Positions 36,613 through 53,853 of a stretch of 64,000 nt of DNA are shown piece after piece. Each line of letters begins with the position of its first letter. The stretch's first letter is position 1. This stretch comes from Parcubacteria bacterium GBS-2 (GTDB lineage Bacteria; Patescibacteriota; Minisyncoccia; Minisyncoccales; GBS-2), in the NCBI GenBank assembly GCA_001443025.1, contig LEKP01000001.1, forward strand, positions 56 through 64,055, read 5' to 3'. The notes under the pieces were generated by a model. That model worked only from the letters and a program-made list of their open reading frames with translations, was not told the origin of the DNA and did not search any database. A program made the translations under genes and the position numbers.

Positions 36613-38097
36613 ATGGCAGAAATTTATTACCTAATTTTGACAATTTTTTCTTTATCTTTAGGGGCAGTTTTAGGTTACTTTGCTAGGCAGACAATAGTAA
36701 AAAGAGAAGAAAAAGAACTCAAAGAAAAACTCCAAAAGGTAAAAGAGGAGGCAGATTTGATTTTGAGAGAGGCAGAAAGAAAGAGAAAGAAAAAAGAAAA
36801 AGAAATTTTTGAAAAAGAAGAAGTTTTGGCAAAAAGGGAAACTTTTTTAAAGAGAAAAATTTCTGAAATTGAAAAGAGAGAACTGGAATTAAAAGAAGAA
36901 GCAGAGAAAATAAATAAAGAAAAAGAGGAGATAGAAAATCTAAAAACCCAAATTAAAGAAAGACTGGAGAAAATTTCTGGGATAAAAAAAGAAGAGGCAA
37001 AGAAGGAAATTTTAAAGGAAATCGAAGAGGAAATTAAGAAAGAAGCCACAGAAAGAATTAAAAAATTGGAAAAAGAAGGAGAAGAAAGATTTCAAAAAAG
37101 GGCAAGGGAAATTTTAGCTAGCACTATTCAAAGATTAACCCTTCCAGTAGTTCAAGAAACAACCACCTCAACCGTTCTTTTACCGAATGAAGAAATAAAG
37201 GGAAAAATTATTGGGAAAGAAGGAAGAAATATTAGAACTTTGGAAAATTTGACAGGGGTTGAAATTATCGTTGATGAAACTCCAGAAACAGTAACTATCT
37301 CTTGTTTTGATCCTATCAGGAGGCAAATTGCAAAATTGGCTCTAGAGAAATTAATCAAAAATGGAAGAATTCAACCTGCAAAGATTGAGGAAAAAGTTGA
37401 GGAAGCAAAAAAAGAGATTAATCAGCAAATCAAAGAAGCTGGGGAAATGGCTGCAATGGAATTGGGGTTGGTTGGAATTGATCCAAGGCTTTTACAAATT
37501 TTAGGAAGGCTAAAATTCAGAACATCCTATGGTCAGAATGTTTTGTTACATTCTATCGAAGTTGCTCTTTTGGCTTCAGCTTTAGCAGAAGAAATTGGAG
37601 CTAATGCCTTAGTTTGTAAAAAGGCAGGACTTTTTCATGACATTGGAAAAGCAATGGATTTGCAGGTTGAAGGATCTCATGTAGATATTGGGATCAAAAT
37701 TTTGGAAAAATTTGGAGTAGAAAAAGAAGTAATCGATGCGATGAAATCTCATCATGAAGAATATCCTTATGAGTCTGTCGAAGCAGTCTTAGTTCAGGTT
37801 GCAGATCAAATTTCAGGAGCAAGACCTGGAGCAAGAAAGGATACTTTGGAAAACTATTTAAAGAGAATTTCTGAATTAGAAAAAATCGCCCTTTCTTTTC
37901 CTGGAGTAGAAAAGGCTTGGGCGTTACAAGCAGGAAGAGAAATTAGGGTTTTTGTTAGACCAGAGGAAATTGATGATTTTGGAGCAAGAAAATTGGCAAG
38001 GGAAATTGCAAAAAGAATAGAGGAAGAATTGAATTATCCTGGAGAGATCAAAGTAACTTTAATTCGCGAAATGAAAGTGGTTGAGTACGCAAGGTAA
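36613..38097 (+). CDS. rny: Ribonuclease Y
   Basis: N-terminal TM, long coiled coil, KH (KGKIIGKEGRNIRTLE), HD domain (LLHSIEVA...FHDIGKA). Confidence 0.9.
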   Translation: MAEIYYLILTIFSLSLGAVLGYFARQTIVKREEKELKEKLQKVKEEADLILREAERKRKKKEKEIFEKEEVLAKRETFLKRKISEIEKRELELKEEAEKINKEKEEIENLKTQIKERLEKISGIKKEEAKKEILKEIEEEIKKEATERIKKLEKEGEERFQKRAREILASTIQRLTLPVVQETTTSTVLLPNEEIKGKIIGKEGRNIRTLENLTGVEIIVDETPETVTISCFDPIRRQIAKLALEKLIKNGRIQPAKIEEKVEEAKKEINQQIKEAGEMAAMELGLVGIDPRLLQILGRLKFRTSYGQNVLLHSIEVALLASALAEEIGANALVCKKAGLFHDIGKAMDLQVEGSHVDIGIKILEKFGVEKEVIDAMKSHHEEYPYESVEAVLVQVADQISGARPGARKDTLENYLKRISELEKIALSFPGVEKAWALQAGREIRVFVRPEEIDDFGARKLAREIAKRIEEELNYPGEIKVTLIREMKVVEYAR

Positions 38098-38107
38098 AGC
38101 TAATTTT

Positions 38108-38167
38108 CTAGTTAGTTGTCTGGTTTTCTAGTTATCTGGTTTGCTGGTTTTCTAGGTAGCTGGGTAA
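38108..38167 (+). repeat. Octamer array A: 8-bp-periodic CTRGTTWT repeats in the rny 3' region
   Basis: CTAG/CTGG at 38108, then 38120, 38128, 38136, 38144, 38152, 38160 (strict 8-bp phase). Confidence 0.85.
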
Positions 38168-38175
38168 TTCTTTAT

Positions 38176-38215
38176 TGCGGCCCAAGGTTTCATATTTTGA
38201 GCCGCATTTTTATTT
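38176..38215 (+). terminator. Candidate rho-independent terminator of rny
   Basis: TGCGGC (38176-38181) ... GCCGCA (38201-38206) followed by TTTTTATTTT. The loop is long (19 nt). Confidence 0.45.
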
Positions 38216-38300
38216 TAAGAAAAATATATTTGGTGAGGTTATAAATTAGGGCAATCGTCGTATTTTGTAACGGGTTGGAGAAGGAGTTTAATGCAAAATT

Positions 38301-38365
38301 TTTACAATGGGCAAGTGCTGGCGCGATAGCACCAGGGAGCGGAGCCCCAGGGGAGAGGGTGTTTG
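38301..38365 (-). ncRNA. Conserved tRNA-Gly 3' trailer element (copy 1)
   Basis: About 80 percent identical to 57475..57538 by hand alignment. Lies directly 3' of tRNA-Gly on the minus strand. Contains the hairpin CTGGTGC-TATC-GCGCCAG, which is pairable only in the minus-strand sense. Confidence 0.4.
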
Positions 38366-38436
38366 AGCGGGAGAGGGGAATCGAACCCCCGTACACGGCT
38401 TGGAAGGCCGTTGCATTACCACTATGCTACTCCCGC
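38366..38436 (-). tRNA. tRNA-Gly (anticodon UCC)
   Basis: Minus strand GCGGGAG..CTCCCGC plus U73. Anticodon stem ACGGC/GCCGT, loop CTTCCAA, T-loop TTCGATT. Confidence 0.9.
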
Positions 38437-38437
38437 T

Positions 38438-38508
38438 TCGGGGTGCTGGGAATTGAACCCAGTCCACATCCTCCCAAGGGATGCGTACTACCGTTATACT
38501 ACACCCCG
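38438..38508 (-). tRNA. tRNA-Pro (anticodon UGG)
   Basis: CGGGGTG..CACCCCG plus A73. Anticodon stem CATCC/GGATG, loop CTTGGGA, T-arm CTGGG-TTCAATT-CCCAG. 1-nt spacer to tRNA-Gly. Confidence 0.9.
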
Positions 38509-38514
38509 ATAAAA

Positions 38515-38574
38515 CCAGCAAACCAGAAAACCAGCCAGCCAAACGCCCAGCCAACCAGAAAACCAGCCAACTAA
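38515..38574 (-). repeat. Octamer array B (minus-strand CTGGTTTT sense), predicted 5' leader of the tRNA-Pro/Gly operon
   Basis: CCAG/CCAA on the plus strand at 38515, 38523, 38531, 38539, 38547, 38555, 38563, 38571 (8-bp phase). Ends 6 nt from the tRNA-Pro 5' end. Confidence 0.85.
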
Positions 38575-38577
38575 TTT

Positions 38578-38606
38578 TACTTATCATTTTCTTTTTTTTC
38601 AGTCAA
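38578..38606 (-). promoter_or_regulatory. Candidate promoter of the tRNA-Pro/Gly operon
   Basis: Minus strand TTGACT (38606-38601), 17 bp, TAAGTA (38583-38578). The predicted TSS would place the whole array B in the leader. The -10 is weak. Confidence 0.3.
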
Positions 38607-38621
38607 TTGTATAATTGAATA

Positions 38622-39560
38622 ATGAAGATTTTTGAACAACTAAACGTTCCAAAGCAATGCAAAAGATATGGACTTTCTCTTTGGCAATGCCCCTCTTTTT
38701 TATTTTTACTAATGGGAATAATTATTTGTCTAGTGTCAATAGTATCCTATCTTATTGGAACAAGATATATTGCAGAACCAAGGATTGTGGCATTAATAGT
38801 GTTAATAATCTCTATGATTTTATTAGCCCTTGCTACCATTATCACAAATTCTTTTGAAAGATTGGCCGAAGCAAACAGAATGAAATCAGAATTTATTAGT
38901 ATCGTTTCTCACCAGTTAAGAGCCCCTCTCTCAAATTTAACTTGGGTTATTGAGCTTTTAATGTCAGGAAGAGTAGGGAAAATTGAAGAAGAACAGGTGG
39001 AATATCTTAAAATTTTAAAAGAAAACTCAGACAGAATGAAAGATTTAGTCAAAGATCTTTTAATTGTTTCAAGAATTGAAAGCGCGAGACTTTCCCTCAG
39101 GAAAGAGGAATTTTCGCTAGAAGAGTTAACCAAAGAAATAATTAAAGAATTTGAACACTTTGCAAAAGCCTCAAATTGCCAAATTGAGTTTTCAGCTGAA
39201 AAAAATTTACCGAAAATTTTTGGTGATAGATACCAAATAAGGCAAGTGATTGAGAATTTATTAGATAATGCGATCCGGTATACTAAAGGGCGGGGAAAAG
39301 TAAAAATTAGGATAAAAAAAGAAAAAAAATTTATCCACTTTGAAATTGAAGATAATGGAATTGGAATTCCAAAGGAAGATCAAAAATTTATCTTCCAGAA
39401 ATTTTTCAGGGCTTCTAACGTTTTAAAATACAAAACTCAAGGAACTGGCCTTGGACTTTACATTGCAAAAGCAATAGTAGAAAGGTCGGGTGGCAAAATT
39501 GGCTTTAAAAGCCAAGAAGGAGCAGGATCTACCTTTTGGTTTAAACTCCCAATAAAATGA
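38622..39560 (+). CDS. Sensor histidine kinase (two TM segments, no obvious sensor domain)
   Basis: H-box FISIVSHQLRAPLS, N-box LLDNAIRYT, G1 IEDNGIGIP, G2 GTGLGLYIAK. TATAAT (38610-38615) lies 6 nt before the ATG. Confidence 0.9.
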   Translation: MKIFEQLNVPKQCKRYGLSLWQCPSFLFLLMGIIICLVSIVSYLIGTRYIAEPRIVALIVLIISMILLALATIITNSFERLAEANRMKSEFISIVSHQLRAPLSNLTWVIELLMSGRVGKIEEEQVEYLKILKENSDRMKDLVKDLLIVSRIESARLSLRKEEFSLEELTKEIIKEFEHFAKASNCQIEFSAEKNLPKIFGDRYQIRQVIENLLDNAIRYTKGRGKVKIRIKKEKKFIHFEIEDNGIGIPKEDQKFIFQKFFRASNVLKYKTQGTGLGLYIAKAIVERSGGKIGFKSQEGAGSTFWFKLPIK

Positions 39561-39925
39561 AAAAAATTTTATTCATAGAAGATGAATCTGCCTTACAAAA
39601 AACCTTCAGAGATATTTTAGAAAGGGAAGGCTATGAAATGATTTCAGCATTAGATGGAGAAAGTGGTTTAAGATTAGCAAAGACTCAAAAACCTGATTTA
39701 ATTTTGTTAGATTTAATACTGCCCAAAAAAGATGGGTTTGATGTGTTAAAGGAATTGAAAGAAAATGAAGCTACAAAAGAGATTCCGGTGATAGTTTTAA
39801 CAAACCTCGAAGAGATTGAATCTATAGAAAAAGCAATTGAGCTTGGAGCAACTACTTATTTAGTGAAAGCCCAATACACTTTAGAAGAAGTTATCCAAAA
39901 AGTAAAGAAAGCATTAGAAAAATAA
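39557..39925 (+). CDS. Stand-alone response-regulator receiver domain (CheY-like)
   Basis: 122 aa. FIEDE, phospho-acceptor context LILLDLILP, VIVLTN, KA. No output domain. Confidence 0.9.
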   Translation: MKKILFIEDESALQKTFRDILEREGYEMISALDGESGLRLAKTQKPDLILLDLILPKKDGFDVLKELKENEATKEIPVIVLTNLEEIESIEKAIELGATTYLVKAQYTLEEVIQKVKKALEK

Positions 39926-39926
39926 A

Positions 39927-41678
39927 ATGAAAGTAGAACCTCAGCAATTGAAAGCATTTATGATGGATGCGGGCCTAATTAGTGAAGAAAGGTTCGAAGA
40001 GTGTTTAAAAAAAGCTCAATCGAGGGGAATAAGGATCGAAGACATTTTGGTTTCAGAAGGAATAATCTCAGAGAACGATTTAAGAAAATTGGAGGCATAT
40101 ATTTTAGGAATTCCCTTTGTTGATTTAGAGAAAGAAACTATCGACCCTGAGGTTTTAAAAATTATTCCAGAGCCAGTTGCCAGAGCAAACAACATCGTTG
40201 CTTTTAGAAAAAAAGGGAATGATGTAGAAGTTGCGATGCTAGATCCTGAAGATCTGAGGGCGATTGAATTTTTAAAGAAGGCTTATCCAAATTTTAGAAT
40301 TTTGCCAAGATTGACCACACCAGAGTCGATAAAGCATGTTTTGAGACAATATCAGAAAACTTTGGAGGCAGAGTTTGGAGAGATAATTAAAAAAGAAGCA
40401 GGGGAAATAAAAACAATAAAGGAAGAAGAAAAAATTGAGGAAAAGGAAGAATTAGAAAAGATGGCAATGGAGCTTCCGATAATAAAGATTGTTGATACTT
40501 TGATAAAACATGCAATTTTGCAAAGGGCTTCTGACATCCACATTGAACCCATGGAGAAAGAAGTTTTAGTAAGATATCGCATCGATGGAATTTTGAGAGA
40601 TGCAATGACTTTACCAAAGATTGCAGCATCTGGGATCGTCGCAAGAATTAAAGTTCTTTCAAATTTAAGAATGGACGAACATAGACTTCCCCAAGATGGG
40701 AGATTCAAGGTAGAAACTCCAGAGTACAAATACTCAATCAGAGTTTCGGTTATGCCTGTGTTCGATGGAGAAAAAATTGTAATGAGGCTTTTACCAGAAA
40801 CTGCCCGAGGATTTACTCTAGAACAGCTTGGTTTTAGGGGGAAAGCTTTAGAAGATGTTCAGCTTAATTTAAGGAAGCCGGTTGGAATGATTTTGGTTTG
40901 CGGTCCCACAGGCTCTGGGAAAACCACTACTTTGTATTCAATGATTGAAATTTTAAATAATCCCGGTGTAAACATTTGTACAATTGAAGACCCAATAGAA
41001 TACAGAATGCCAAGAGTAAATCAAACTCAAGTAAACCCCAAAATTGGGTTAACTTTCGCTGCAGGACTAAGAGCTCTCCTTAGACAGGACCCTGATATCA
41101 TTATGGTTGGTGAAATTAGAGATAATGAAACTGCTTCTTTAGCAATTAATGCTGCTTTAACTGGTCATCTGGTTTTATCAACTTTACACACAAACTCTGC
41201 GGCTGGCGCAATTCCCAGATTGATTGATATGAAAGTTGAACCCTTCTTAATTGCTTCCACCTTAAATTTGATTATTGGACAGAGATTAGTTAGAAAAATT
41301 GCGGGAGAAAAGGAAAAATATTATTTAAAAGAAAGCGAATTAGACAACATCGCCAGATACTGTAATTTAGATAGAATTTTACAAATTTTAAGAGAAGAAA
41401 ATTTAATAAGACCTAATCAGCCTTTAACAAAAGTTCCTTTTTATCGCCCAAAACCTACCAAGGAATACCCGGATGGGTACAAAGGGAGAATTGGGATTTT
41501 TGAGGTTTTACCGGTTACTCAAACAATTAAGGAATTAATTGTTAAAGAGTCGAATATTGATGAGATTGAAGAACAAGCAAAAAAAGAAGGAATGAGAACA
41601 ATGGTTGAAGATGGATTTGTAAAAGCTGCTCTGGGAATAACTACCATCGAAGAAGTTTTAAGAGTAATTACTGAATAA
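39927..41678 (+). CDS. pilB: Type IV pilus assembly ATPase PilB/GspE family (copy 1, no tetracysteine motif)
   Basis: ASDIHIEP, RMDEHRLPQDGRF, Walker A GPTGSGKTTT, LRQDPDIIMVGEIRD, GHLVLSTLHTN. Confidence 0.9.
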   Translation: MKVEPQQLKAFMMDAGLISEERFEECLKKAQSRGIRIEDILVSEGIISENDLRKLEAYILGIPFVDLEKETIDPEVLKIIPEPVARANNIVAFRKKGNDVEVAMLDPEDLRAIEFLKKAYPNFRILPRLTTPESIKHVLRQYQKTLEAEFGEIIKKEAGEIKTIKEEEKIEEKEELEKMAMELPIIKIVDTLIKHAILQRASDIHIEPMEKEVLVRYRIDGILRDAMTLPKIAASGIVARIKVLSNLRMDEHRLPQDGRFKVETPEYKYSIRVSVMPVFDGEKIVMRLLPETARGFTLEQLGFRGKALEDVQLNLRKPVGMILVCGPTGSGKTTTLYSMIEILNNPGVNICTIEDPIEYRMPRVNQTQVNPKIGLTFAAGLRALLRQDPDIIMVGEIRDNETASLAINAALTGHLVLSTLHTNSAAGAIPRLIDMKVEPFLIASTLNLIIGQRLVRKIAGEKEKYYLKESELDNIARYCNLDRILQILREENLIRPNQPLTKVPFYRPKPTKEYPDGYKGRIGIFEVLPVTQTIKELIVKESNIDEIEEQAKKEGMRTMVEDGFVKAALGITTIEEVLRVITE

Positions 41679-43745
41679 TTAAACAAAATAGATTTTTCTT
41701 TTTCTAACTAAATTTTCTCTTAACTTCAAATATTTTCTTAAATTAGGATCTTCTTTCAGAATTTCTTTTGCATTTTCTCGTGCCAATTCAATTAAGCCCA
41801 AGTCGGTCAATTTTGCAACTTTTAGATCTAATTTACCAGTTTGTTTCTCTCCTAAAAGATCCCCAGGTCCTCTAATTTCCAAATCTTTTTCTGCAAGCTC
41901 AAAAGCATTATTTGAAGATAAAAGAGCTTCGATTCTTTGAGCTGATTTTTTAGTTGGCAAATGAGAAATCAAAAAACAAAAAGCTTTTTTTCCAGATCTT
42001 CCGATTCTTCCGATCAATTGATAAAGTTGAGCCAATCCAAACATTTCCGCATTCTGGATAACCAACACATTAACTTGAGGCAGATCAATTCCTTCTTCAA
42101 TTACATTAGTGGCGACCAAAATATCCAAAAATTTTTCTTCAAATTGCCTCATTACAATTTCTTTTTCTTTTGTACTCATTTTTCCATATAAAATTCCAAT
42201 TTTAAATTCAGGGAAAAATTTTTTGAGTAAAGAATGCTGTTCTTTCACAGTTTTTACTTCTGAAAAAAGCCTTCCTTTTTGGGAAAACTCAATTCGGGGG
42301 CAAACAAAGAAAACCTGCTCCCCTTCTTCTATTTTTTCTTTGATAAATTCCAAAACCATCTTTTCTTCTTTTGGTAAAACGACTTTAATTTCTATTTCTC
42401 TTTTTCCACAAGGCAATTCTTTGAGTAAAGAAATATCTAAATCTCCAAAAATTGTTAAGGCTAAAGTTCTAGGAATCGGTGTTGCGGTCATTGACAAAAA
42501 ATGAGGTAAAATTTTTTGTTTCTCCAAAAGTTTTCTTCTTTGTTCAACTCCAAATTTGTGTTGCTCATCAAAAATTAAAAGAGCTAATTTTTGAAATTCT
42601 ATCTTTTCTTCAAAAAGAGAATGTGTGCCGATTAAAATCTTAACCCCCCCTTCTTTAATTTTTTTAATCATTTCTTCTTTCTTGAGCTTCTTTCCAGCGA
42701 ATTCAGAATACCCCTTTGTTAAAATGCCGATTCTTTTTTCAAAAGGTTCTAACATTCGAAAAATTTTTCTATAATGCTGGGCCGCTAAAATTTCTGTGGG
42801 AGCAATCATTGCTGATTGATAATTATTTTTTGCGCAGTTCAAGGCTAAAATTGTTGCCACTAAAGTTTTTCCAGAGCCCACATCCCCTTGCAATAACCTA
42901 TTCATAGGAACACTTTTTTCCATCTCTTTTAGCATTCTCCAAGTTTCTTTTTTTTGAGATTCAGTTAATTCAAAAGGCAAAGACTTTATAAACTCCTTTA
43001 TCGCTTCAACTTGAATTTTTAAGGGATAAGCCCTTTTCTTTTTAACTTTTAATTTCTCCCTTAAAACTTCAATTTCTAGTAAAAAGAGTTCTTCAAAAGC
43101 AAACCTAAACCTCGAAATTTTAATATCCTCTTTTGTTTCTGGAAAATGGATTTTTAAGATTGCCTCTTTTAAGGGAACTAAATTTAGTTTTTTTAAAATT
43201 TTTTCTGGTAAAAATTCTCTTGCTCTCCAAATTTCATTTTTCAACACCAAAGAAATCTTCTCTCTTATCCATTTTGTAGTAATTCCCTTTGTTTCAGGAT
43301 AAATTGGAATGATTTTTCCGGTATGTAAAAGATTAAAGTGGGGAATTTTTGGGATTTTTTCAAAAACAGGGTGCTGTAAATAAAAATAACCCTTCTTTTG
43401 TACAATTTTTCCAGAAAAAGAGAAAAACTCTCCTTTTTTGAAAACGTTTTTTAGAAAGGGTTGGTTATAAAAAACCGCTTTAATTCTTGAAGAAGAGTCA
43501 GAAATTTCAATTTCAGTTAAAATTTTTCCTCCTCTCAAGAATAAATTTTTAATACTTTCTATCTTCCCTTGAATGGTTAATGGAATTCCAATCTCTGCCT
43601 CAGAAATTTTTGAAATTTTTGAAAAATCTTCATACTTATTAGGGAAGTAATAAAAACAATCCTCGATCGTCTCTATGCCCAATTTTTTTAATCTTGTAAT
43701 CTCTCTCTTTTTTAGATAATTCAAACTCTCAATTTTTTCTTCCAT
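41679..43745 (-). CDS. recG: ATP-dependent DNA helicase RecG
   Basis: LQGDVGSGKTLVA (Walker A), DEQHKFG, MTATPIPRTL, GRIGRSG. The stop abuts the pilB stop with zero spacing. Confidence 0.9.
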   Translation of the reverse strand: MEEKIESLNYLKKREITRLKKLGIETIEDCFYYFPNKYEDFSKISKISEAEIGIPLTIQGKIESIKNLFLRGGKILTEIEISDSSSRIKAVFYNQPFLKNVFKKGEFFSFSGKIVQKKGYFYLQHPVFEKIPKIPHFNLLHTGKIIPIYPETKGITTKWIREKISLVLKNEIWRAREFLPEKILKKLNLVPLKEAILKIHFPETKEDIKISRFRFAFEELFLLEIEVLREKLKVKKKRAYPLKIQVEAIKEFIKSLPFELTESQKKETWRMLKEMEKSVPMNRLLQGDVGSGKTLVATILALNCAKNNYQSAMIAPTEILAAQHYRKIFRMLEPFEKRIGILTKGYSEFAGKKLKKEEMIKKIKEGGVKILIGTHSLFEEKIEFQKLALLIFDEQHKFGVEQRRKLLEKQKILPHFLSMTATPIPRTLALTIFGDLDISLLKELPCGKREIEIKVVLPKEEKMVLEFIKEKIEEGEQVFFVCPRIEFSQKGRLFSEVKTVKEQHSLLKKFFPEFKIGILYGKMSTKEKEIVMRQFEEKFLDILVATNVIEEGIDLPQVNVLVIQNAEMFGLAQLYQLIGRIGRSGKKAFCFLISHLPTKKSAQRIEALLSSNNAFELAEKDLEIRGPGDLLGEKQTGKLDLKVAKLTDLGLIELARENAKEILKEDPNLRKYLKLRENLVRKRKIYFV

Positions 43746-43774
43746 ACTCTCAATTTTATGTTAAAATTTAAATA

Positions 43775-44986
43775 ATGCCAAAGTACTCTTTTTTAGCAAA
43801 ATCTTTGGAAGGAAAAACGGAGAAAGGAATTTTGGAAACAAAAGATGAATTTGAATTGGCAAAGATTTTAAGAGAAAAAGGGTTGATTTTAATTAAGGCA
43901 GAAAAAGAAAGAGAAAAGAAAAGGCTAAAAATTCCTCTTTTTTCTTTGGGGGTCCCCCTTTCTGAAAAAATGTTTTTTACAAGAAATTTAAGGGTAATGA
44001 TATCTGCTGGAGTTTCTTTACCGAGAGCAATTTTAAGTTTATCTGAACAAACGAAAAATAAAAAATTTAAAAATGCTCTACAGAAAATTGCAGAAAGGAT
44101 TGTCAAAGGGGAGAAATTTTCAGATGCTCTTTCTTATTTCCCTCAAATTTTTAATGAATTTTATCAAAACATGATCAAAGTTGCTGAAGAAACCGGGAAG
44201 TTAGAGGATGTTTTGGGAATTTTAGCAACCCAGATGGAAAGAGAGCATGAATTGAGATCAAAAATTAAAGGAGCAATGATTTATCCAGCAGTAATAGTTT
44301 GTGCCTTAATTGGGGTTGGTGTTTTAATGCTTGTAATGGTAGTTCCAAAATTGGCTGAAACTTTTAAAGAGTTAGGGGTAGAGTTGCCAATGACAACAAG
44401 AATTGTAATTTCTCTGGGAACTTTTTTAGAAAAAAACTTTTTAATTTTACTTATTTCTTTCATTGTTTTAATCTTCTTTTTCTTCCAATTTTTAAAAACG
44501 AAAGTTGGAAAAAGGATTTTTGATAAAATTTCCCTCTTTCTCCCAATTTTTTCTTCTTTGGTTAAAAAATCAAACTCAGCATCAACTGCCAGATCTTTGA
44601 GTTCTTTAATTTCTGCGGGAGTTTCTTTGCCAAGAGCTCTAGAAATTACCGCAAATACTTTAGGAAACGTTTTTTATAAAGAAGCATTATTAACTAGTGC
44701 AGAAGCAGTGAGAAAAGGAGGAAAATTGTCTGAAAGCTTAAAACCTTATCAAAAAATTTATCCACTGACTCTAATTTCGATGCTTGCGGTTGGAGAAGAA
44801 ACTGGAGAAACTTCGGAGGTTTTGGCAAAAATTGCTGATTTTTATGAAAGCGAAGTAACAGATGCAGCAAAAAACTTAACTTCTGTTATTGAACCAATTT
44901 TAATGTTGATTATTGGAGCTGCGGTTGGATTTTTTGCAATTTCGATGGTTCAACCAATGTATTCGATGCTTGGTGCGATTAAATGA
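43775..44986 (+). CDS. pilC: Type IV pilus platform protein PilC (GspF family)
   Basis: Two GspF repeats (MISAGVSLPRAI...; LISAGVSLPRALE), 3 TM segments, EPILMLIIGAAVG. Confidence 0.9.
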   Translation: MPKYSFLAKSLEGKTEKGILETKDEFELAKILREKGLILIKAEKEREKKRLKIPLFSLGVPLSEKMFFTRNLRVMISAGVSLPRAILSLSEQTKNKKFKNALQKIAERIVKGEKFSDALSYFPQIFNEFYQNMIKVAEETGKLEDVLGILATQMEREHELRSKIKGAMIYPAVIVCALIGVGVLMLVMVVPKLAETFKELGVELPMTTRIVISLGTFLEKNFLILLISFIVLIFFFFQFLKTKVGKRIFDKISLFLPIFSSLVKKSNSASTARSLSSLISAGVSLPRALEITANTLGNVFYKEALLTSAEAVRKGGKLSESLKPYQKIYPLTLISMLAVGEETGETSEVLAKIADFYESEVTDAAKNLTSVIEPILMLIIGAAVGFFAISMVQPMYSMLGAIK

Positions 44987-46743
44987 ATTTTCAATATCCA
45001 ACTTTCAATTTTAAAAAATCAAAGAGTTTTACCTTAACCGAAGTTTTAATTACTATTTTTTTAGTTTCGGTTATTTTTTTAGGAATTTTTGGTGCTTATC
45101 AACTTGGATTAAAAGTTGTTGGTTTGTCAGAAAGAAAAATCACAGCTACTCAAATTGCTCAAGGAGAAATTGAAAAAATCAAAAACATGCCTTATTTGGA
45201 TGTTGGAACGATCGGAGCCAAAGCTCCTTATGCTTCGGGAACTTTGGAAGCTTCAACCTCAACGATTTTAAACGGTATTGAATATAAAATTGAAAGAAAA
45301 GTGAGGTTAATTTCTGATGCTTCAGATGGTGATGAAGAATGTTTAATAGATTACAAGAGAGTTGAAATTAAAGTCTCTTTTTCTGGGATCTTAAAAGGAG
45401 AAGTGATTTTAACAGCAGACATTATGCCAAAAAGCAAAACCGAAGAAATAGCAATTTGTCAAACCCAACCTATTGGAATTATCTCTGTTCAAGTGTTAAA
45501 TGCTATTGGTCAATTCGTCAATTCCCCAACGATCGAAATTTACGATTCTCAAAAAAATTTGATAGGAATTTTTTCACCTTTTGAAGGAAAAGATGATATC
45601 CCTTTAGAACCTGGAAGTTACAAAGTAATCGTTTCAAAAGAGGGTTATTCGAGAGAAGAAACTTTTTCTATTGAAGAGATTGCCATTCCTGAAAAGCCAA
45701 ACCCAACAGTTTTTGAAAACCAAATCACCCAAATTTCCTTTAATATCGATAAACTCTCTTCAATGGAAATTAAAACCTTAAGTACTTACAGTCAAGGAAT
45801 TTTTTCAGATTCGTTTTTAGATGAAAGCAAAATTTCTCAAAAGGAAAATTTGATAGTTGAAGCAGGCCAGGTAAATTTGGCAACTAATACCGAAGGTTAT
45901 TTACCTTTTGGTTACCTTTTTTCAATCGAAATTTCACCTCAAAATTTGATTAAATGGGAAAGTTTTTCTTTTACTGATGAAGAGCCCCCAGATACTGATT
46001 TAAAATACCAAGTTTATTTTGCTTCAGGAACTGAGTGGTTTTTAATTCCAGATTCTGATTTACCAGGAAACTCACAAGGTCTTGAGCAAAGTCCTGTCGA
46101 TTTATCTAATCTTTCAACTACTACCTATTCTTCTTTAAAACTAAAAGCCAACTTTTCAACGAATTCAACCTCTCAAACTCCAATTCTTTATGATTGGCAA
46201 GTTTCTTGGCAAAGTTCAAATCCAGTTCCCATTCCAGAGGTTAGCTTTAATTTAAAAGGGGAGAAAATTTTGGGAAAAGATGCTGAGGAGAATTTAATCT
46301 ATAAATACTCAACAACTACCCAAACCAATCCTCAAGGCCAAATTCAAATTTCAAACTTGGAATGGGATACTTATTACTTTTCAGATTTTCAAAAAGATTC
46401 TCAGAGCTTAGAATTGATAAATTCTTCTCTTGAACTTCCAGTTTCTTTACCTCCAGATACTAACTTGAACTTAGATCTTTATCTTGAAAGCCAAAATTCC
46501 CTTTTGATTTCAGTTTACGATTCAGAAACCCTAAATCCAATTTCTTTTGCAACCGCTACTCTATCGAGTGTAAATTTTGAAAAAATTGAAATTACCAATT
46601 TAAACGGGCAGGCAATTTTTATTCCTTTGGATTCAAAAAATTATAATCTTTCAATAGAAGCTCAAGGATATTATTCGACCTCAACTACCCTCTTTGTCTC
46701 TGGAAAAACAACCAAAATTATAAAATTGGAACCAAGAGACTAA
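44983..46743 (+). CDS. Giant pilin-like protein with beta-sandwich (CarboxypepD_reg-like) repeats
   Basis: N-terminal class III signal-like KSKSFTLTEVLITIFLVSVIFLGIFGAY (FTLxE plus hydrophobic helix). Later GSYKVIVSKEGYSREE and NYNLSIEAQGYYSTS repeats. Confidence 0.7.
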   Translation: MNFQYPTFNFKKSKSFTLTEVLITIFLVSVIFLGIFGAYQLGLKVVGLSERKITATQIAQGEIEKIKNMPYLDVGTIGAKAPYASGTLEASTSTILNGIEYKIERKVRLISDASDGDEECLIDYKRVEIKVSFSGILKGEVILTADIMPKSKTEEIAICQTQPIGIISVQVLNAIGQFVNSPTIEIYDSQKNLIGIFSPFEGKDDIPLEPGSYKVIVSKEGYSREETFSIEEIAIPEKPNPTVFENQITQISFNIDKLSSMEIKTLSTYSQGIFSDSFLDESKISQKENLIVEAGQVNLATNTEGYLPFGYLFSIEISPQNLIKWESFSFTDEEPPDTDLKYQVYFASGTEWFLIPDSDLPGNSQGLEQSPVDLSNLSTTTYSSLKLKANFSTNSTSQTPILYDWQVSWQSSNPVPIPEVSFNLKGEKILGKDAEENLIYKYSTTTQTNPQGQIQISNLEWDTYYFSDFQKDSQSLELINSSLELPVSLPPDTNLNLDLYLESQNSLLISVYDSETLNPISFATATLSSVNFEKIEITNLNGQAIFIPLDSKNYNLSIEAQGYYSTSTTLFVSGKTTKIIKLEPRD

Positions 46744-46744
46744 A

Positions 46745-47779
46745 ATGAAAATTCCAAATTTCAAATCCCAAATTCCAAATTTAAAATTCAAAAAGGGATT
46801 TACCTTAACTGAGGCAATCGTTGCAATTTTTGTTTTTTCTCTTTTGATGGGAGCAATTTCAGCAACGATTTTAATTTTATATCGAACCCATTCTTACGAG
46901 TGGCAACAATCGATTGCTATTGAAGAAGCAAGAAGGGGGATTGAAACGATGGTAAAAGAAATTAGAGAAGCAAGAGAGGGAGAAAACGGAGCTTATCCCA
47001 TAGAATATGCTGGAGATAAAGAATTCGTTTTTTATTCAGATATTGACAACGATGGAAAAACAGAAAGGGTAAGATACTTTTTGGGAAAAATCGAAACTGA
47101 AAATTTTTTTGATGAATGTCAAAGCAACCAAAAAGGGGGATCTTGCTCGGTTAGTTTTTCAAATTTTATTAAAGAAAATGGAAAAGTAATCTCGGCAATT
47201 TTGAAAGTTACAGCTAGGGGAGATCTAGATAGCATCTATGAGTATTTAACGATTTCGGTAAACGGTCAAGAATTGGAAGATAAAATTTGCCAAACAGGAT
47301 GTTCTCAATGTCCCTTGAATTTTGAGGGAATGAAAACTTTCGATATTACTGATTTTGCAAAAACTGGTTCAATTACAATTTTGGCAAAAGCATCTTGCCC
47401 AAACCCCAACAAAGAATCAAGATGCGTCGATGTCATTTGCGATTCAAACACAATTTCTTTTAAAGCAAGGTTTGAACTCTCAATCACTCAAGAAGTTCAA
47501 ACAACTGAATTGAAAAAAGGAGTAATAAAAGCAATAGGAGACCCACCAACTTATCCTTTAGACCAAGAAAAAGTTTCAGTAATTACTTCTTATGTCAGAA
47601 ATTCACCTCCAATTTTTGAATACTTTGATCAAAACGGAAATAAAATTATAGACTATCCAGCAAGATTAAAAGATACTAAAGTAATGAAAGTTTTTTTAGT
47701 GATTAATGTTGATCCAAATCGACCTCCTACTGAATTTCAATTGGAATCTTTTGTGCAATTGAGGAATTTAAAAGAATGA
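46745..47779 (+). CDS. Cys-rich minor pilin/pseudopilin (PilW/GspJ-like position)
   Basis: KFKKGFTLTEAIVAIFVFSLLMGAI prepilin motif. About 10 Cys in the globular part. Confidence 0.7.
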   Translation: MKIPNFKSQIPNLKFKKGFTLTEAIVAIFVFSLLMGAISATILILYRTHSYEWQQSIAIEEARRGIETMVKEIREAREGENGAYPIEYAGDKEFVFYSDIDNDGKTERVRYFLGKIETENFFDECQSNQKGGSCSVSFSNFIKENGKVISAILKVTARGDLDSIYEYLTISVNGQELEDKICQTGCSQCPLNFEGMKTFDITDFAKTGSITILAKASCPNPNKESRCVDVICDSNTISFKARFELSITQEVQTTELKKGVIKAIGDPPTYPLDQEKVSVITSYVRNSPPIFEYFDQNGNKIIDYPARLKDTKVMKVFLVINVDPNRPPTEFQLESFVQLRNLKE

Positions 47780-49278
47780 AAAAAGGGTTTACCACAAGCT
47801 ATGTTTTAGTTTTTGGAATGATTTTTCTAATAATGCTTGCTGGTCTTTTGGGTTTTATTTTAACTCAATTGAAAATTTCAAAACAAAAAATAGCCTGGCA
47901 CGAAGCTTTAAACATTGCAGAAGCTGGCTTGGAATACTACAAATGGTGCATAAACAATAATATCGAAAACTGTTCCACAACCAAAACTTATTATGACCTT
48001 TCTGGAAAAGCAATTGGAAAGTTTGAAATTCAATTTGAAAGCAACCAAAACTGCGGAAAACTCATTTCCCAAAAAATAGTTTCTACGGGTTACACTTTCG
48101 ATTTTCCTAATATAAAAAGAAAAATTGCTACTTTTTACGGCAGAGAATCAGTCGCTAAATATTCTTACATTTTAAACTCCAACGTTTGGGTCGATTCAGA
48201 CCACGTCATTAAAGGACCTTTTCACTCAAACGGAGGAATTAGGTTTGATGGAACGAATTATTCTACGGTTTCTTCTGCCCAATCTAGTTGGGTTTGCACT
48301 TCTTCTTTTGGTTGCGGTCCTCAGGGAGTAGGTTATGGATTGGGGCTTTGTCTTCCAGAGTGCCAAATTATAAACCAAAAATGCATTTGTCCTGGAGTAT
48401 TTTCAACTACCCAAAATTCAAACAGAGATCTCTTTTTATACCCTACTTCTCAATTTGATTTTGCAGGCATTAGCGTAGATTTGGCTCAGGTCAAAAAAAT
48501 TACTAAAGACGATGGATTGGGTTTGTATTTTGGACCCTCTGGCGCTTATGGTTACCACATTTTCATTAACGGCGATTACCTCATTGTCAAAAGAGTGACT
48601 CAAGTTAGAATGATTGACGATCTTTGCACAATAGTGAACGATAAAATAATCTGTCAAGGAGACCCTTGCACTTCAGAATGCACTCGATGCCAATCTGGAA
48701 AATGCATTGTCGAAGAACCAGTTATTAAATCTGAAATAGATCTTGGGACTTTTCAAATCCCTTCAGATTGTGGAGCAATCTTTTTTGAAGACAATCTTTG
48801 GGTAGGAAGCGAAAATCAAACTAGTAGCATAAGAGGAAAAATAACGATTGTTTCTGCCAATTTAACTGGTACCCCTCAAAAGACAAACATTTGGCTCCAA
48901 GGAAGCATCGAATATGCAAGCTCTAGCCAGTTTGATGGTTTGACCATAATTTCCCAAAACAACCTTTTGGTCGGACTTTATTCTCCAAACGTTATGAATT
49001 TGAAGGGAATTTTTGTTGCCCAAAACGGATTTTTTGGAAGGAATTATTATCCTTGTTCTAAATATTCGCCCTATTGCAAAAGAGATTTCTTATCAATTAC
49101 AGGTTCGATCGTTTCTTCAGGAAGGGTTGGAACAAAATGGACTGGTTCTGGAGGACAATTTGTTTCTGGTTATCAAAATCGAGAAACCTATGTTGATTCA
49201 AATTTGCTTTACAATCCTCCAATTTTCACTCCTTTTTTATCTTTTGAATTTAAAATTGTTAAATGGGAAGAACTTTAA
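47776..49278 (+). CDS. Large Cys-rich PilX-like pilus-associated protein
   Basis: MKKGFTTSYVLVFGMIFLIMLAGLLGFIL (pilin-like N-terminus lacking Glu5). More than 20 Cys, e.g. CLPECQIINQKCICPG and CQGDPCTSECTRCQSGKC. Confidence 0.55.
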   Translation: MKKGFTTSYVLVFGMIFLIMLAGLLGFILTQLKISKQKIAWHEALNIAEAGLEYYKWCINNNIENCSTTKTYYDLSGKAIGKFEIQFESNQNCGKLISQKIVSTGYTFDFPNIKRKIATFYGRESVAKYSYILNSNVWVDSDHVIKGPFHSNGGIRFDGTNYSTVSSAQSSWVCTSSFGCGPQGVGYGLGLCLPECQIINQKCICPGVFSTTQNSNRDLFLYPTSQFDFAGISVDLAQVKKITKDDGLGLYFGPSGAYGYHIFINGDYLIVKRVTQVRMIDDLCTIVNDKIICQGDPCTSECTRCQSGKCIVEEPVIKSEIDLGTFQIPSDCGAIFFEDNLWVGSENQTSSIRGKITIVSANLTGTPQKTNIWLQGSIEYASSSQFDGLTIISQNNLLVGLYSPNVMNLKGIFVAQNGFFGRNYYPCSKYSPYCKRDFLSITGSIVSSGRVGTKWTGSGGQFVSGYQNRETYVDSNLLYNPPIFTPFLSFEFKIVKWEEL

Positions 49279-49297
49279 ATTGAGGTATAATTGAAAT

Positions 49298-50383
49298 ATG
49301 GAGTTTTTATCTTTAAAACCAAAAGCTTTTGGATTGGATATTTCTGATTTATCTTTGAAATTTTTGATGTTAGAAAGGAAAAGAAGAAATTTTTCAGTGA
49401 GTTTTTTTGGAGAAAGAGAAATTGAGCCTGGAATAATTGAGGGTGGGGAAATAAAAGAAGAGGAAAAGTTGGTAAAAATACTTAAAGAAGTGGCAAAAAA
49501 AGCAAAAACGAAATATGTTGTAGCTTCTTTACCAGAAGAAAAAGCATTTTTACAGGTTATCAAAATGCCCTTGATGTCAGAAGAAGAATTGAGGTCCGCG
49601 ATTGTCTTTGAGGCAGAAAGTTATGTTCCAATACCAATAAATGAAATCTATCTAGATTGCGATATTGTTCCTTCTTTACAGAACCATTCTAAAAATTTAG
49701 ATGTACTTTTAGCAGTGGTTCCAAAAAAAATAGTTGATTCTTATTTGAGGGTTCTAAAAAACGCTGGATTAACACCAATTATCTTTGAAGTTGAATCTTT
49801 AGCCATTGCAAGAGCTTTAATAAAGGATCAATTTACAAATTATTCTGTTTTGATTATTGACCTGGGGGCGACTAGAACTTCTTTTATTATTTTTGCTGGA
49901 AAATCAGTAAGGTTTACTTGCTCTATTCCAGTCTCTGGAATTCATTTCACTGAACTAATCGCAAAGGCGTTAAACGTGAGTTTTGAAGAAGCAGAAAAAT
50001 TAAAAATCACTCATGGTTTGAAAGAAGGGTTAAAAATTAAACTTGGAGAGCAGACAATAGTTGAAAAAATAAAGGGGAAGACCTTTGAAGCTTTGATCCC
50101 AGGATTAGTTGATTTGGTTCAGCAAATTAAAAGATACCTTGATTATTATCAGGCCCATTGTTCTTCTTTTGATCTTCCTTCCGAAATTGGCAAGGTTAAA
50201 AAGATTATTCTTTCTGGAGGAGGAGCAAATCTTGCTGGTTTGAGTGATTTTCTAGAATTGGAAATAGGGATTCCTGTGGAAATTGGGAATCCTTGGATTA
50301 ATATTGGAGAAACAAAAAATTTCCCAAAAGAAAAGTCATTAGCTTTTACAACCGCAATCGGCCTAGCTCAGCAAGGAATATGA
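49298..50383 (+). CDS. pilM: Type IV pilus assembly protein PilM (actin-like ATPase fold)
   Basis: FGLDISDLSLKFL, IIDLGATRTSF, ILSGGGANLAGL. Confidence 0.85.
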   Translation: MEFLSLKPKAFGLDISDLSLKFLMLERKRRNFSVSFFGEREIEPGIIEGGEIKEEEKLVKILKEVAKKAKTKYVVASLPEEKAFLQVIKMPLMSEEELRSAIVFEAESYVPIPINEIYLDCDIVPSLQNHSKNLDVLLAVVPKKIVDSYLRVLKNAGLTPIIFEVESLAIARALIKDQFTNYSVLIIDLGATRTSFIIFAGKSVRFTCSIPVSGIHFTELIAKALNVSFEEAEKLKITHGLKEGLKIKLGEQTIVEKIKGKTFEALIPGLVDLVQQIKRYLDYYQAHCSSFDLPSEIGKVKKIILSGGGANLAGLSDFLELEIGIPVEIGNPWINIGETKNFPKEKSLAFTTAIGLAQQGI

Positions 50384-50901
50384 TTAATCTATTGCCCCCA
50401 GAACAAATAAAGGAATTAAAAGAACAAGAGAATTTTAAAATTCTTGTGAACATTTTTTTATTAATTTTATTTTTTCTTTTTTCCTTTTTTTTAATTCTGC
50501 TTTCAATTAAATTTTATCTATCTGGTAAGCTAGAATCTCAAAAAATTCTTCTTGAAAAGGGAGAAAGAATTTTAGACTTAGAAAAAGAAAAGAAAATCAA
50601 AAAATACAATGAGATTTTATCCCGAATTGAAAATTTTTACCAAAAAAAGATTTCACTTTTCCCAAAGGCAGAGAATTTTTTTGAAAAAATTCCCCCCGCG
50701 ATTTATTTGAATGAATTTGAACTTAAAATAGATAAAAAAGGAGAAATTTCTTTTTGGGTTTTAGGCTTTTCAAAAACTAGAGAAAACTTTTTAGATTTAA
50801 TAAAAATTTTAAAAGACAATTATAAAGAAGTTTCTTTCCCTCCAGAAATTCTTTTGAAAGAAGCTGAGATAAATTTTTCAATTAGTTTCAAAATAAAATG
50901 A
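50380..50901 (+). CDS. pilN: PilN-like bitopic protein
   Basis: MINLLPPEQ start typical of PilN, single TM. ATGA coupling to pilM. Confidence 0.7.
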   Translation: MINLLPPEQIKELKEQENFKILVNIFLLILFFLFSFFLILLSIKFYLSGKLESQKILLEKGERILDLEKEKKIKKYNEILSRIENFYQKKISLFPKAENFFEKIPPAIYLNEFELKIDKKGEISFWVLGFSKTRENFLDLIKILKDNYKEVSFPPEILLKEAEINFSISFKIK

Positions 50902-51440
50902 GCCCAAAAAGAAAAATAATTTTATCTTCAATTTTCTTTTTAATCTTTTTTCTTTTAATTTTTCTTTTCCTGATTTTCCCAACTTTGAAGGAACTAAAAA
51001 GGATTTCGAGAGAGATTCTTCAAACTAACCTAAAGTTGGAAGAAATTGAAAGACGTCAAGAAGAAATTGAGAAATTCAAAAAACTTCCCTCAGAGATTAA
51101 AGAAAATTTATCAAAATTTGAAAATTTTCTGGTTAATAAAGAGATTCCTATAGATTTTGTTGAATTTTTGGAAAAAATGGCAAAAGATTTAAATATCCAA
51201 AGCCAAATTTCAATTTCAAGTTTCTCAAAAGACAGCATTTCCTTTCAAATTAAAGGGGTAAGTTCTCCAGAAAATGTTTTTAAATTTATTGAGAAGGTTG
51301 AAAATTGTAATTATTTGACCCAAATCGAAAAAATAAGAATCTCTAAACTGACTGAATCTGAATTAAAAAGGGAAGAGTTTAAGGAATTTTCAAAAAACGA
51401 TTTAAAATTTGAAATTTTCTTTTCGGTTTTAACAAAATGA
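50898..51440 (+). CDS. pilO: PilO-like bitopic protein
   Basis: N-terminal TM plus coiled coil, by position after pilN. ATGA coupling. Confidence 0.55.
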   Translation: MSPKRKIILSSIFFLIFFLLIFLFLIFPTLKELKRISREILQTNLKLEEIERRQEEIEKFKKLPSEIKENLSKFENFLVNKEIPIDFVEFLEKMAKDLNIQSQISISSFSKDSISFQIKGVSSPENVFKFIEKVENCNYLTQIEKIRISKLTESELKREEFKEFSKNDLKFEIFFSVLTK

Positions 51441-51718
51441 GAATCAAAATGAGAAAATTAAAAAACTTTGTAAAAAAACTACCAAGAATTTTGGTGGAGA
51501 GATTTATTTTGACTTTACTTTTCCTTTTAATCTTAGCCTTTTCTCTGGGTCTTTTGGTCTTTAAAGTTTCAATCTCATTTAAAGAAAAAAAGTTTCCTAA
51601 GATTGAAACATTTAATGAAAATCTTTATCAGAAGGTATTGGAAAAAATTAGAGAACGAGAAAAGAAATTTGAGGAAATTAACCAAAAAATTTATCTCAAC
51701 CCCTTCGAGGAAAAATAA
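51437..51718 (+). CDS. Small bitopic protein with C-terminal NPF motif (fourth member of the pilMNO unit)
   Basis: 93 aa, one TM, ends ...YLNPFEEK. Counterpart at 61696..61995 ends ...RENPFLPIK. Confidence 0.5.
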   Translation: MRIKMRKLKNFVKKLPRILVERFILTLLFLLILAFSLGLLVFKVSISFKEKKFPKIETFNENLYQKVLEKIREREKKFEEINQKIYLNPFEEK

Positions 51719-51721
51719 AAT

Positions 51722-51795
51722 GGTGGCCGACGCGACTCGAACGCGCAACCACCTGGGCCACAGCCAGGCGCTCTGCCAATTGAGCTACGGCCACC
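51722..51795 (-). tRNA. tRNA-His (anticodon GUG) with encoded G-1
   Basis: Minus strand G(-1)GTGGCCG..CGGCCACC (8-bp acceptor including G-1:C73). Anticodon stem CCTGG/CCAGG, loop CTGTGGC. T-loop TTCGAGT. Confidence 0.9.
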
Positions 51796-51796
51796 G

Positions 51797-51869
51797 TGTC
51801 CCCGCTGGGAGTCGAACCCAGATCTCAGGCTTAGAAGGCCCGTGCTCTATCCATTTGAGCTACGGGGAC
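51797..51869 (-). tRNA. tRNA-Arg (anticodon UCU)
   Basis: GTCCCCG..CGGGGAC plus A73. Anticodon stem CGGGC/GCCTG, loop CTTCTAA. T-arm CTGGG-TTCGACT-CCCAG. 1-nt spacer to tRNA-His. Confidence 0.9.
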
Positions 51870-51874
51870 TTTGA

Positions 51875-51926
51875 CCAGAAAACCAGATAACTAGAAAGCC
51901 AGAAAACTAGCCAACCAGCCAACTAT
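51875..51926 (-). repeat. Octamer array C (minus-strand CTGGTTTT sense), predicted 5' leader of the tRNA-Arg/His operon
   Basis: CCAG/CTAG on the plus strand at 51875, 51883, 51891, 51899, 51907, 51915, 51923 (8-bp phase). Ends 5 nt from the tRNA-Arg 5' end. Confidence 0.85.
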
Positions 51927-51930
51927 ACTA

Positions 51931-53843: not shown

Positions 53844-53853
53844 CAAGGATTTA

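Follow-up and report, generated by a model that had tools for sequence, protein, structure and literature searches.

Five short arrays of a phased octamer (consensus CTRGTTNN) lie in the spacers around tRNA genes in a 64,000-nucleotide stretch of the genome of Parcubacteria bacterium GBS-2 (assembly GCA_001443025.1, contig LEKP01000001.1, positions 56 to 64,055; hereafter the window). The feature is real and non-random, bound to tRNA spacers, strand-polar and specific to this lineage. With a probability that we put at about 50%, the arrays are a slippage-driven minisatellite of this lineage that occupies dispensable spacers of tRNA operons, is co-transcribed as leader or trailer, and is a substrate for recombination. 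Close relatives lack, resize or replace the arrays, which therefore look like fast-evolving spacer DNA and not like a conserved processing signal.

Phased octamer arrays beside tRNA genes

Both strands of the 64 kb were scanned with a periodic position weight matrix (PWM) built on the units of arrays A, B, C and E, the score being the sum over four phased units. The scan found exactly five arrays of 48-64 bp (Table 1), the same five that a sequence-only reading of this DNA had proposed. Their scores range from 29.7 to 45.2; the next best site in the window reaches 12.9, and the top score among 30 Markov shuffles was 19.4. Because the units of array D were left out when the matrix was built, D is an independent match. 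CT[AG]G tetramers spaced by exactly 8 bp were recovered by a chain search in arrays A, B, C and E, where the sequence-only reading had listed them, and Tandem Repeats Finder (TRF) called period-8 arrays at the same four sites; in B and C it scored a 16-bp higher-order period above the 8-bp period. Comparison of the units shows that T2 and G4 are invariant, that positions 1 and 3 are confined to C or T and to A or G, respectively, and that positions 7-8 vary freely, transversions included. The box is CTGG in 18 of 25 units and CTAG in the other seven (7/25). An Rfam 15 search of the window brought only tRNA genes to threshold and gave no family for the arrays.

The window is AT-rich (33% G+C) and holds 15 tRNA genes. 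Of the 8 intergenic regions that hold tRNA genes, 4 contain the five arrays between them; the other regions, 14 with a length of 40 nt or more, contain none (Fisher p = 0.0096). It had been claimed that arrays flank all five multi-tRNA clusters, but only four have them; the fifth, tRNA-Arg(gcg)/Ala(ggc)/Phe/Gly(gcc) (57539-58405, -), contains GC-rich hairpin modules and no array. The single tRNA genes were said to be free of arrays, and none of them has the octamer, although tRNA-Ala(cgc) is directly trailed by tandem repeats of another kind. In each of the five arrays it is the G/T-rich strand that runs in the sense of the local gene (p ~0.06 by itself). This polarity is read from gene orientation, which fits the earlier claim that the arrays always lie on the transcribed strand in 5/5 cases, transcription itself being deduced. 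ORFs (open reading frames) that run across the arrays overlap tRNA genes and can be set aside as artefacts, as had been supposed.

The spacing between arrays and genes also agrees with what had been described. Array A is in the 3' untranslated region (UTR) of rny, the gene for RNase Y (36613-38097; Pfam RNase_Y_N, KH and HD); it starts 7 nt past the stop codon (38097) and ends just before the terminator hairpin. Arrays B and C are placed alike, each filling the gap from a promoter-like -10 element to the first tRNA gene and stopping 2 nt from it (tRNA-Pro and tRNA-Arg, respectively), so that each is a predicted 5' leader. The upstream sequence GTAAAATTAGT, which the sequence-only reading had found to be common to B and C, is confirmed and holds this -10 element. 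Array D, whose start coincides with the stop codon of a GNAT gene and lies about 27 nt past a promoter-like site, ends 24 nt before tRNA-Val. Array E lies in a 3' trailer, 4 nt past tRNA-Leu, and overlaps the stop codon of a convergent ORF (56957-57430, -).

Table 1. Octamer arrays and neighboring features in the window
Feature	Position	Strand	Details
Array A	38104-38167	+	about 7 units (CTGGTTTT, CTAGTTAT, CTGGTTTG ...); PWM score 45.2
rny intrinsic terminator	38176-38215	+	hairpin 38176-38206, then AUUUUUAUUU; -15.3 kcal/mol, z = -4.45
GC-rich module remnant, antisense	38300-38364	-	directly 3' of tRNA-Gly(tcc)
tRNA-Pro(tgg)-tRNA-Gly(tcc) operon	38365-38509	-	bracketed by B (5' side) and inverted A (3' side)
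Array B	38511-38574	-	eight octamer units; PWM score 41.9
Promoter-like site before array B	38574-38602	-	CTGAAA-17-TAAAAT
tRNA-Arg(tct)-tRNA-His(gtg) operon	51721-51869	-	array C on the 5' side
Array C	51871-51926	-	seven octamer units; PWM score 40.9
Promoter-like site before array C	51931-51958	-	TTGATC-16-TAAAAT, with TG
Promoter-like site before array D	54245-54273	+	TTGATA-17-GAAAAT, inside the end of the GNAT gene
Array D	54300-54347	+	weaker; 3-4 units plus T run; PWM score 29.7
GC-rich tRNA-flank module remnant	54338-54370	+	GGGTTTCTACCCTATGGAGAGCGGAAAGAAA, fused to the 3' end of array D; compared with L294 module GAAACCTAGGTTTCTCCCCTATGGAGAGCGGAGCG
tRNA-Val(tac)-tRNA-Ser(tga) operon	54371-54543	+	array D on the 5' side
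tRNA-Cys(gca)-tRNA-Leu(taa)	56736-56905	+	at the end of the DUF4446-infB-rbfA unit
Array E	56909-56964	+	seven octamer units; PWM score 38.2
Two GC-rich modular hairpin elements	57691-57944	-	flanked by tRNA-Ala(ggc) and tRNA-Phe; listed for context, no octamer array

Turnover of the arrays in relatives

The lineage is AT-rich and of hot-spring origin, and it has a short IF2, RNase Y, type IV pilus genes and acetyl-CoA carboxylase genes. Six assemblies encode an identical RNase Y, and two assemblies with this RNase Y were recovered from sediment of Great Boiling Spring at 77 °C. Five of the six have the same array A, which is re-patterned in L004; there it has 8 units, two of them of 7 nt, despite 99.3% identity over the last 300 nt of rny. 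As to array B in the same assemblies, L005 and L006 keep it, L002 has six different units, and in L001, L003 and L004 it is swapped for a GC-rich hairpin module.

Further RNase Y homologues (L293-L297) came from a protein search, and their contigs were compared. Array A is present with 5 units in L296 (RNase Y 86% identical) and degenerate in L295 (92%); both lack array B, their promoter lying ~10-25 nt from tRNA-Pro. The remaining three lack array A: L293 (94%) has a GC-rich module in the B slot, L294 (92%) has a rearranged B locus, and L297 (79%) lacks B and has the tRNA-Pro/Gly pair inverted. At the positions of C, D and E, no octamer array was found in seven loci whose IF2 is 86-90% identical to that of the window (L127-L130, L132-L134). 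L131 (IF2 87%) keeps D with a decayed C, and L135 and L136 (IF2 85%) have an E-type array after tRNA-Leu. The sequence-only reading had named a lack of positional conservation in related genomes as grounds for giving up its proposal, and conservation is indeed largely lacking, the arrays being absent from those seven loci and from genomes with RNase Y identities of 92-94%.

Where array D does persist, it does not stand out. It is 94% identical between the window and L131, on par with the neighboring GNAT gene (95%), and we rejected special conservation of D on that ground. Between very close strains D differs by the length of its T run or by a 1-nt indel, and C by one substitution. No exact-protein matches for RbfA or IF2 are on record, probably owing to differing start codon choice by gene callers. 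The IF-2 of the window (54902-56377) is 491 aa long, with GTPase, IF-2 and C-terminal domains; the long N-terminal region is absent.

The leader of tRNA-Pro documents change at a single locus, with 8 units in the window, 6 in L002 and ~16 in L135. The promoter-like site before it has the form TTGAC[TG]-17-TA[AG][GA]TA, conserved in L002 and L135. The L135 leader spans ~130 nt of AGTTATTC, AGTTGTCT and AGTTGTAA units and bears the marks of slippage (3 x AAAGTTGT, 3 x TCAGTTAT and 16-bp periods); many of its units have lost the CURG box (TCAGTTGT, AAAGTTGT). The arrays are head-to-tail copies above chance whose unit number and composition differ between strains at the same locus, as in a minisatellite, and the 16-bp higher-order periods together with the triplets of identical units point to slippage or unequal exchange.

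The arrays keep to tRNA spacers in the relatives as well. None was found outside such spacers in ~105 kb around rny of five relatives, nor in the IF2-centered loci L127-L206. The expected enrichment beside tRNA genes thus held within the window and in close array-bearing relatives; it did not extend to other phyla, as described below. Distant relatives (IF2 at most 61% identical) had none of these arrays. Other repeats of 7-9 bp (heptamers, octamers) stand near tRNA genes in 9 of 16 cases in these distant relatives against 29% expected (p = 0.023), a weak excess; tRNA spacers may thus be prone to repeats in the clade at large. Separately, we noted (TAGAAAT)n, (TTGTCAT)n, (TAATTTC)n and (AAATTGC)n a few nt from tRNA genes (L177, L174, L128, L135); examples of the heptamer repeats in L177 are at 5188-5282, 7817-7850, 8901-8931 and 13235-13392.

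GC-rich modules and a proposed origin of the octamer

The arrays are paralogous: CTAGTTATCTGGTT is common to A, C and E, A and E terminate in CTGGTTTTCTAGG[TG]AG[CT]TGGGT, and D and E terminate in TTGGGTTTCTA. Array D runs directly into CCCTATGGAGAGCGGA, which is the 3' half of the hairpin GAAACCTAGGTTTCTCCCCTATGGAGAGCGGAGCG of a GC-rich module, and the module with this hairpin stands upstream of tRNA genes in relatives. These modules take the same slots as the octamer arrays, with copies in the window and in L001-L004, L127-L135 and L293-L296. All 47 copies (47/47) lie within 381 nt of a tRNA gene, 37 in sense and 10 in antisense orientation, the antisense ones only after the terminal tRNA-Gly of operons; the element at 38300-38364, for example, is found again after tRNA-Gly(gcc) at 57480-57538. 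The modules are composed of the blocks GGGGTGACAGCGAG, CGAGCGCCATGGAG, GGGGAAACCTNGGTTTCCCC, TATGGAGAGCGAGCCGAAGC, GCGCCAGCGC..GCGCTGG and GGAGGCGAGCGA, and they match no Rfam family.

We suggest the following course of events for the minisatellite. The octamer would have grown by slippage from the CTAGGTTT arm of the GC-rich module hairpin, arrays would then have been resized by replication slippage or unequal exchange, and recombination between similar flanks could have spread them among tRNA spacers. They would be transcribed with the G/U-rich sense, B, C and D in 5' leaders, E in a 3' trailer and A in the rny 3' UTR, and the leader and trailer copies would be discarded once RNase P and 3' processing free the tRNAs. 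Such a course would require no sequence-specific function. As dispersed repeats in both orientations, the arrays may in addition serve as substrates for inversion.

Rearrangements at array-bearing spacers

Two relatives bear on this last step. In L294 (11486-21485, compared with window 38098-51958) rny is joined to tRNA-Arg/His, after which the pilus genes follow in reverse up to RecG; an inversion with its ends at the A and C positions would produce this order, the two arrays being inverted relative to each other in the window. In L297 (11486-11700) the tRNA-Pro/Gly pair has the opposite orientation and lies between rny and a histidine kinase gene. The breaks fall in the A/C and the A/B spacers, which makes these repeat-carrying spacers rearrangement breakpoints. 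No octamer array is present at the L294 and L297 junctions. The suggestion of the sequence-only reading that the arrays could be a DNA-level recombination element gains two breakpoints in array-bearing spacers, which is indirect support: the spacers are breakpoints, with the arrays themselves as candidate crossover sites only.

Alternative readings

Several observations weigh against a purely neutral minisatellite. A neutral repeat need not be polar, yet all five arrays share the sense polarity. Three of them (B, C, D) are placed precisely in the interval that separates a -10 element from the first tRNA gene, a position that would suit a regulatory element. The sense strands fold at 37 °C (-8.8 to -19.4 kcal/mol, z = -2.6 to -4.6) by way of G·U pairs. 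The uneven variation within units hints at constraint on the CTRG box, a hint confounded by the choice of units by that very box and by their shared descent. Finally, our view takes in about one third of the genome's tRNA loci. An alternative that we consider unlikely, though worth keeping in mind, would account for the polarity and placement through RNA: the transcribed (CURGUUNN)n would offer multivalent single-stranded sites to an endoribonuclease, with RNase Y as one candidate, or to an RNA-binding protein, which would clear the leaders and trailers of pre-tRNAs and, through array A, which precedes the protective terminator hairpin of rny, feed back on RNase Y synthesis. RNase Y prefers to cut after G in A/U-rich single strands. 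The sense polarity at 5/5 arrays is joined here by their exact placement (B, C and D in predicted leaders, E in a trailer, A in the gap between stop codon and terminator of rny), by CURG and UU positions that are conserved with transitions as the only box changes, by tracts predicted to be unfolded and hence accessible at 75 °C, and by the retention of array A in all strains with identical RNase Y and in the 86% lineage. Yet the arrays are dispensable, A and B being missing at 92-94% RNase Y identity; strongly structured GC-rich modules, or no leader at all, take their slot and are not functionally equivalent; many L135 units are without the CURG box; and one multi-tRNA cluster and all single tRNA genes do without an array. 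The sequence-only reading had proposed a dedicated platform for pre-tRNA processing. That proposal is weakened, since the slot in relatives is held by GC-rich modules, a homing-endonuclease gene or nothing; what may remain of it is a lineage-specific, dispensable version. Its most far-reaching form would make the octamers a single-stranded RNA signal common to pre-tRNA leaders and trailers and the rny 3' UTR, with one protein maturing tRNA operons and autoregulating RNase Y and the GC-rich modules as the alternative of sister lineages, a combination that we regard as improbable. If it were true, it would tie tRNA processing to the control of RNase Y in a way that is new and open to direct test.

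Ribbon-helix-helix proteins bind DNA in arrays, MetJ on tandem 8-bp met boxes and ParG on 4-bp boxes with 4-bp spacers, and a small protein that polymerizes with an 8-bp step on CTRG boxes (with T-rich 4-bp spacers) could by analogy act as a roadblock or repressor past tRNA promoters and at the ends of transcription units. The exact 8-bp step is common to both; in parH, too, a 4-bp box alternates with a 4-bp AT-rich spacer, as the conserved box and the variable AT-rich spacer do here. CTAG is a palindrome on DNA, B, C and D begin within ~30 bp downstream of a promoter-like -10, and there are 5-8 units per array (D being listed as 3-4 plus a T run). Unlike in the MetJ and ParG sites, however, most boxes are CTGG (18/25), which has no dyad symmetry on DNA, and the arrays lie past the -10 or after genes and not across promoters: none overlaps a -35 or -10, and A and E are not at promoters at all. 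A domain scan restricted to neighboring genes found ribbon-helix-helix in 0 of 10 proteins; one of them (53148-53822) has only weak helix-turn-helix matches, below threshold. Polarity relative to transcription would not be expected of an operator, and the patchy loss and replacement in close relatives speaks against one, so that we rate this idea as quite improbable. Lower still stands a duplex formed by arrays A and B, which do form the inverted pair that had been described (39-41 nt, 71-86% complementary) and could meet in a long transcript, either as leader B with an antisense-A trailer or as A with antisense B in rny read-through, to give an RNase III-type stem for processing or degradation. 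In L001 inverted GC-rich modules (58 nt, 76% complementary) bracket the same tRNA-Pro/Gly pair, and the restriction of antisense modules to terminal tRNA-Gly genes would fit. But C, D and E have no inverted partner, L296 has A without B or an upstream module, so that partners co-occur imperfectly, and the rny terminator lies between A and the tRNA genes. Given one cluster with an inverted pair and this imperfect co-occurrence, we retain the leader-trailer stem as a minor and very improbable rival. The rRNA stems cut by RNase III are similar in that complementary sequences (A/B, or the L001 modules) bracket the tRNA-Pro/Gly genes; they differ in that the pair occurs at 1 of 4 array-bearing clusters and that the partner is ~200 nt off, beyond the terminator. 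We give equally little credence to a strand-specific G·U hairpin, in which the sense RNA would fold on itself as a weak terminator, attenuator or protective 5' or 3' structure. CURG can pair with itself through G·U wobbles, which is why the sense strands fold; the antisense strands (AAAACCAG)n are predicted to be unstructured (-0.6 to -1.4 kcal/mol, z ~0). No substitution occurs in the box other than C to U and G to A, both of which keep the wobble pairing. The predicted sense fold has nonetheless melted at 75 °C (0 to -2.6 kcal/mol), and the spring of two source samples is about as hot (77 °C). Even at 37 °C the perfect repeat (CUGGUUUU)7 folds to no more than -6.2 kcal/mol, which is fifth in a set of 21 octamers matched in composition. 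Predicted energies near zero and the weak folding of the perfect repeat make a stable hairpin in situ unlikely. U tracts do not follow in the layout of a terminator, chance matches apart, and the L135 units break the palindrome.

Some further roles were tried and discarded. A stable RNA hairpin or intrinsic terminator as the general role fails because the folds are G·U-rich and melt at 75 °C, and because the true terminator stands separately after A. A Rho utilization site on the antisense RNA would suit the composition, as the antisense tract is unstructured, at least 50 nt long and richer in C than in G; the geometry fits only E, with its convergent ORF, since rny read-through would copy A in its G/U-rich sense, and an incoming antisense transcript would reach the tRNA genes before B, C and D. 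A replication-oriented, Chi-like octamer was rejected on orientation, A (+) and B (-) being opposite within 470 bp and C (-) and D (+) within 2.4 kb. Few units match, by eye, the NusG-type pause motif TTNTTT on the non-template strand.

The octamer in other phyla

We scanned one genome per species for the pattern CTRGTTNN x3 + CTRG. More than 120 loci in many phyla match it, which is a lower bound, and most are simple near-perfect microsatellites such as (CTAGTTTT)n and (CTGGTTGG)n. None of 60 loci from other phyla has a tRNA gene beside the array, and among the matches listed no shared protein family recurs beside arrays across phyla. In viral contigs the CTRGTT pattern had 32 matches against 36 and 18 for two scrambled cores, so that the core is not special; the window arrays are a lineage-specific family. 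We rejected a universal CTRGTT octamer element on these three grounds: the matches are microsatellites, they have no tRNA or protein context, and scrambled cores do equally well. In some unrelated genomes one type of perfect octamer microsatellite recurs many times, at several loci (L016, L027, L050, L063, L028/L030/L086/L102/L110 and others). The (CTAGTTTT)n type occurs in Rhodobacteraceae and Vibrio, (CTGGTTGG)n is found at 5 loci in one Wenzhouxiangella metagenome-assembled genome (MAG), and (CTGGTTGA)n at 5 loci in a Caldilineaceae MAG.

Comparison with known repeats

Our literature search found no bacterial precedent for tRNA-linked octamer arrays, and the only published analogue that it found is in Entamoeba. 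There, complex and imperfect short tandem repeats (STRs) of ~7-12 bp occupy tRNA spacers, vary between strains and have no established function; the whole unit of tRNA plus STR is tandemly repeated and makes up more than 10% of the genome (PMC2652664). The window arrays are similar in that they fill tRNA spacers and vary between strains. They differ in that the tRNA clusters are single-copy bacterial operons and the arrays are strand-polar and only 48-64 bp long; no repeated tRNA-plus-STR unit occurs in the window, whose 15 tRNA genes have different anticodons and lie in single-copy clusters. Bacterial variable-number tandem repeat (VNTR) loci share with the arrays the head-to-tail arrangement, strain-variable copy number and composition, higher-order repeats and slippage signatures. 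Ordinary VNTRs are scattered, unlike these five paralogous arrays, which are confined to tRNA-operon spacers and have common terminal units and a common orientation.

In E. coli the distal repeats of tyrT are 178 bp long and present in 3.14 copies, each starting with the tRNA 3' end. They resemble the arrays as tandem repeats attached to a tRNA operon and prone to unequal recombination, and relatives have a tRNA-Gly insert with a 21-bp duplicate of the tRNA 3' end; however, the unit of the arrays is 8 and not 178 bp, and the octamer arrays contain no tRNA-derived sequence.

If the arrays are only hypervariable spacer DNA, their value would be chiefly practical, as strain markers and as likely hot spots of assembly or rearrangement in this uncultured thermophile lineage; they would also parallel, in a bacterium, the unexplained tRNA-linked repeats of Entamoeba. 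More broadly, the tRNA spacers of the lineage are a zone of turnover that takes in octamer arrays, GC-rich modules, homing-endonuclease genes and nested tRNA-like genes, and this turnover bears on the evolution of tRNA gene sets and their flanks.

Other elements in tRNA spacers

The other repeats at tRNA-Ala(cgc) (window 3825-4205) are a 29-bp repeat x3.9 (CACTCTACGCTAAAGCTTCGGAGTGTGAA, itself a hairpin) and a 19-bp repeat x3.9 (GTAGCCTTGGCGAAGGAGT), both directly 3' of the gene, which is also preceded by repeated and inverted GTCAACATA motifs. Downstream of tRNA-Gly(tcc) in L001 (11748-11965), L002, L004, L293 and L296 there is a ~200-bp insert that contains an antisense GC-rich module; it is flanked by the 21-bp direct duplicate of the tRNA-Gly 3' end (GTGTTTGAGCGGGAGAGGGGA) and recalls the tyrT distal repeats or an integration footprint.

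In the slot of array E, directly after tRNA-Leu, L129 (3880-4653) and L131 (after 8021) have an ORF with two LAGLIDADG-type motifs (LGFITADG and FFDGDG, read by eye), which makes it homing-endonuclease-like. In the window a 224-aa ORF (53148-53844) with weak helix-turn-helix matches, likewise grouped with the homing-endonuclease-like genes that adjoin tRNA genes, ends inside tRNA-Arg(cct); L298 (3256-3991) and L302 have a different 225-aa ORF together with a different tRNA-Arg(cct) sequence, which replace the window pair as a cassette.

A last observation concerns two of the assemblies with identical RNase Y, L003 (11825-12085, -) and L004 (6405-6665, -), in which tRNA-Pro is replaced by three nested tRNA-like shells. 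In the outer shell the anticodon arm of tRNA-Pro has become a long stem (CCCCCACCAA/TTTGGTGGGGG); the stem encloses a second, split tRNA-like gene, which in turn encloses a complete tRNA-Pro(tgg). ARAGORN calls the inner gene only, and the nested cloverleaf fold has a predicted free energy of -129.7 kcal/mol (z = -6.4). We found no bacterial precedent for such nested shells. A similar mosaic surrounds tRNA-Val in L135 (4210-4510, +).

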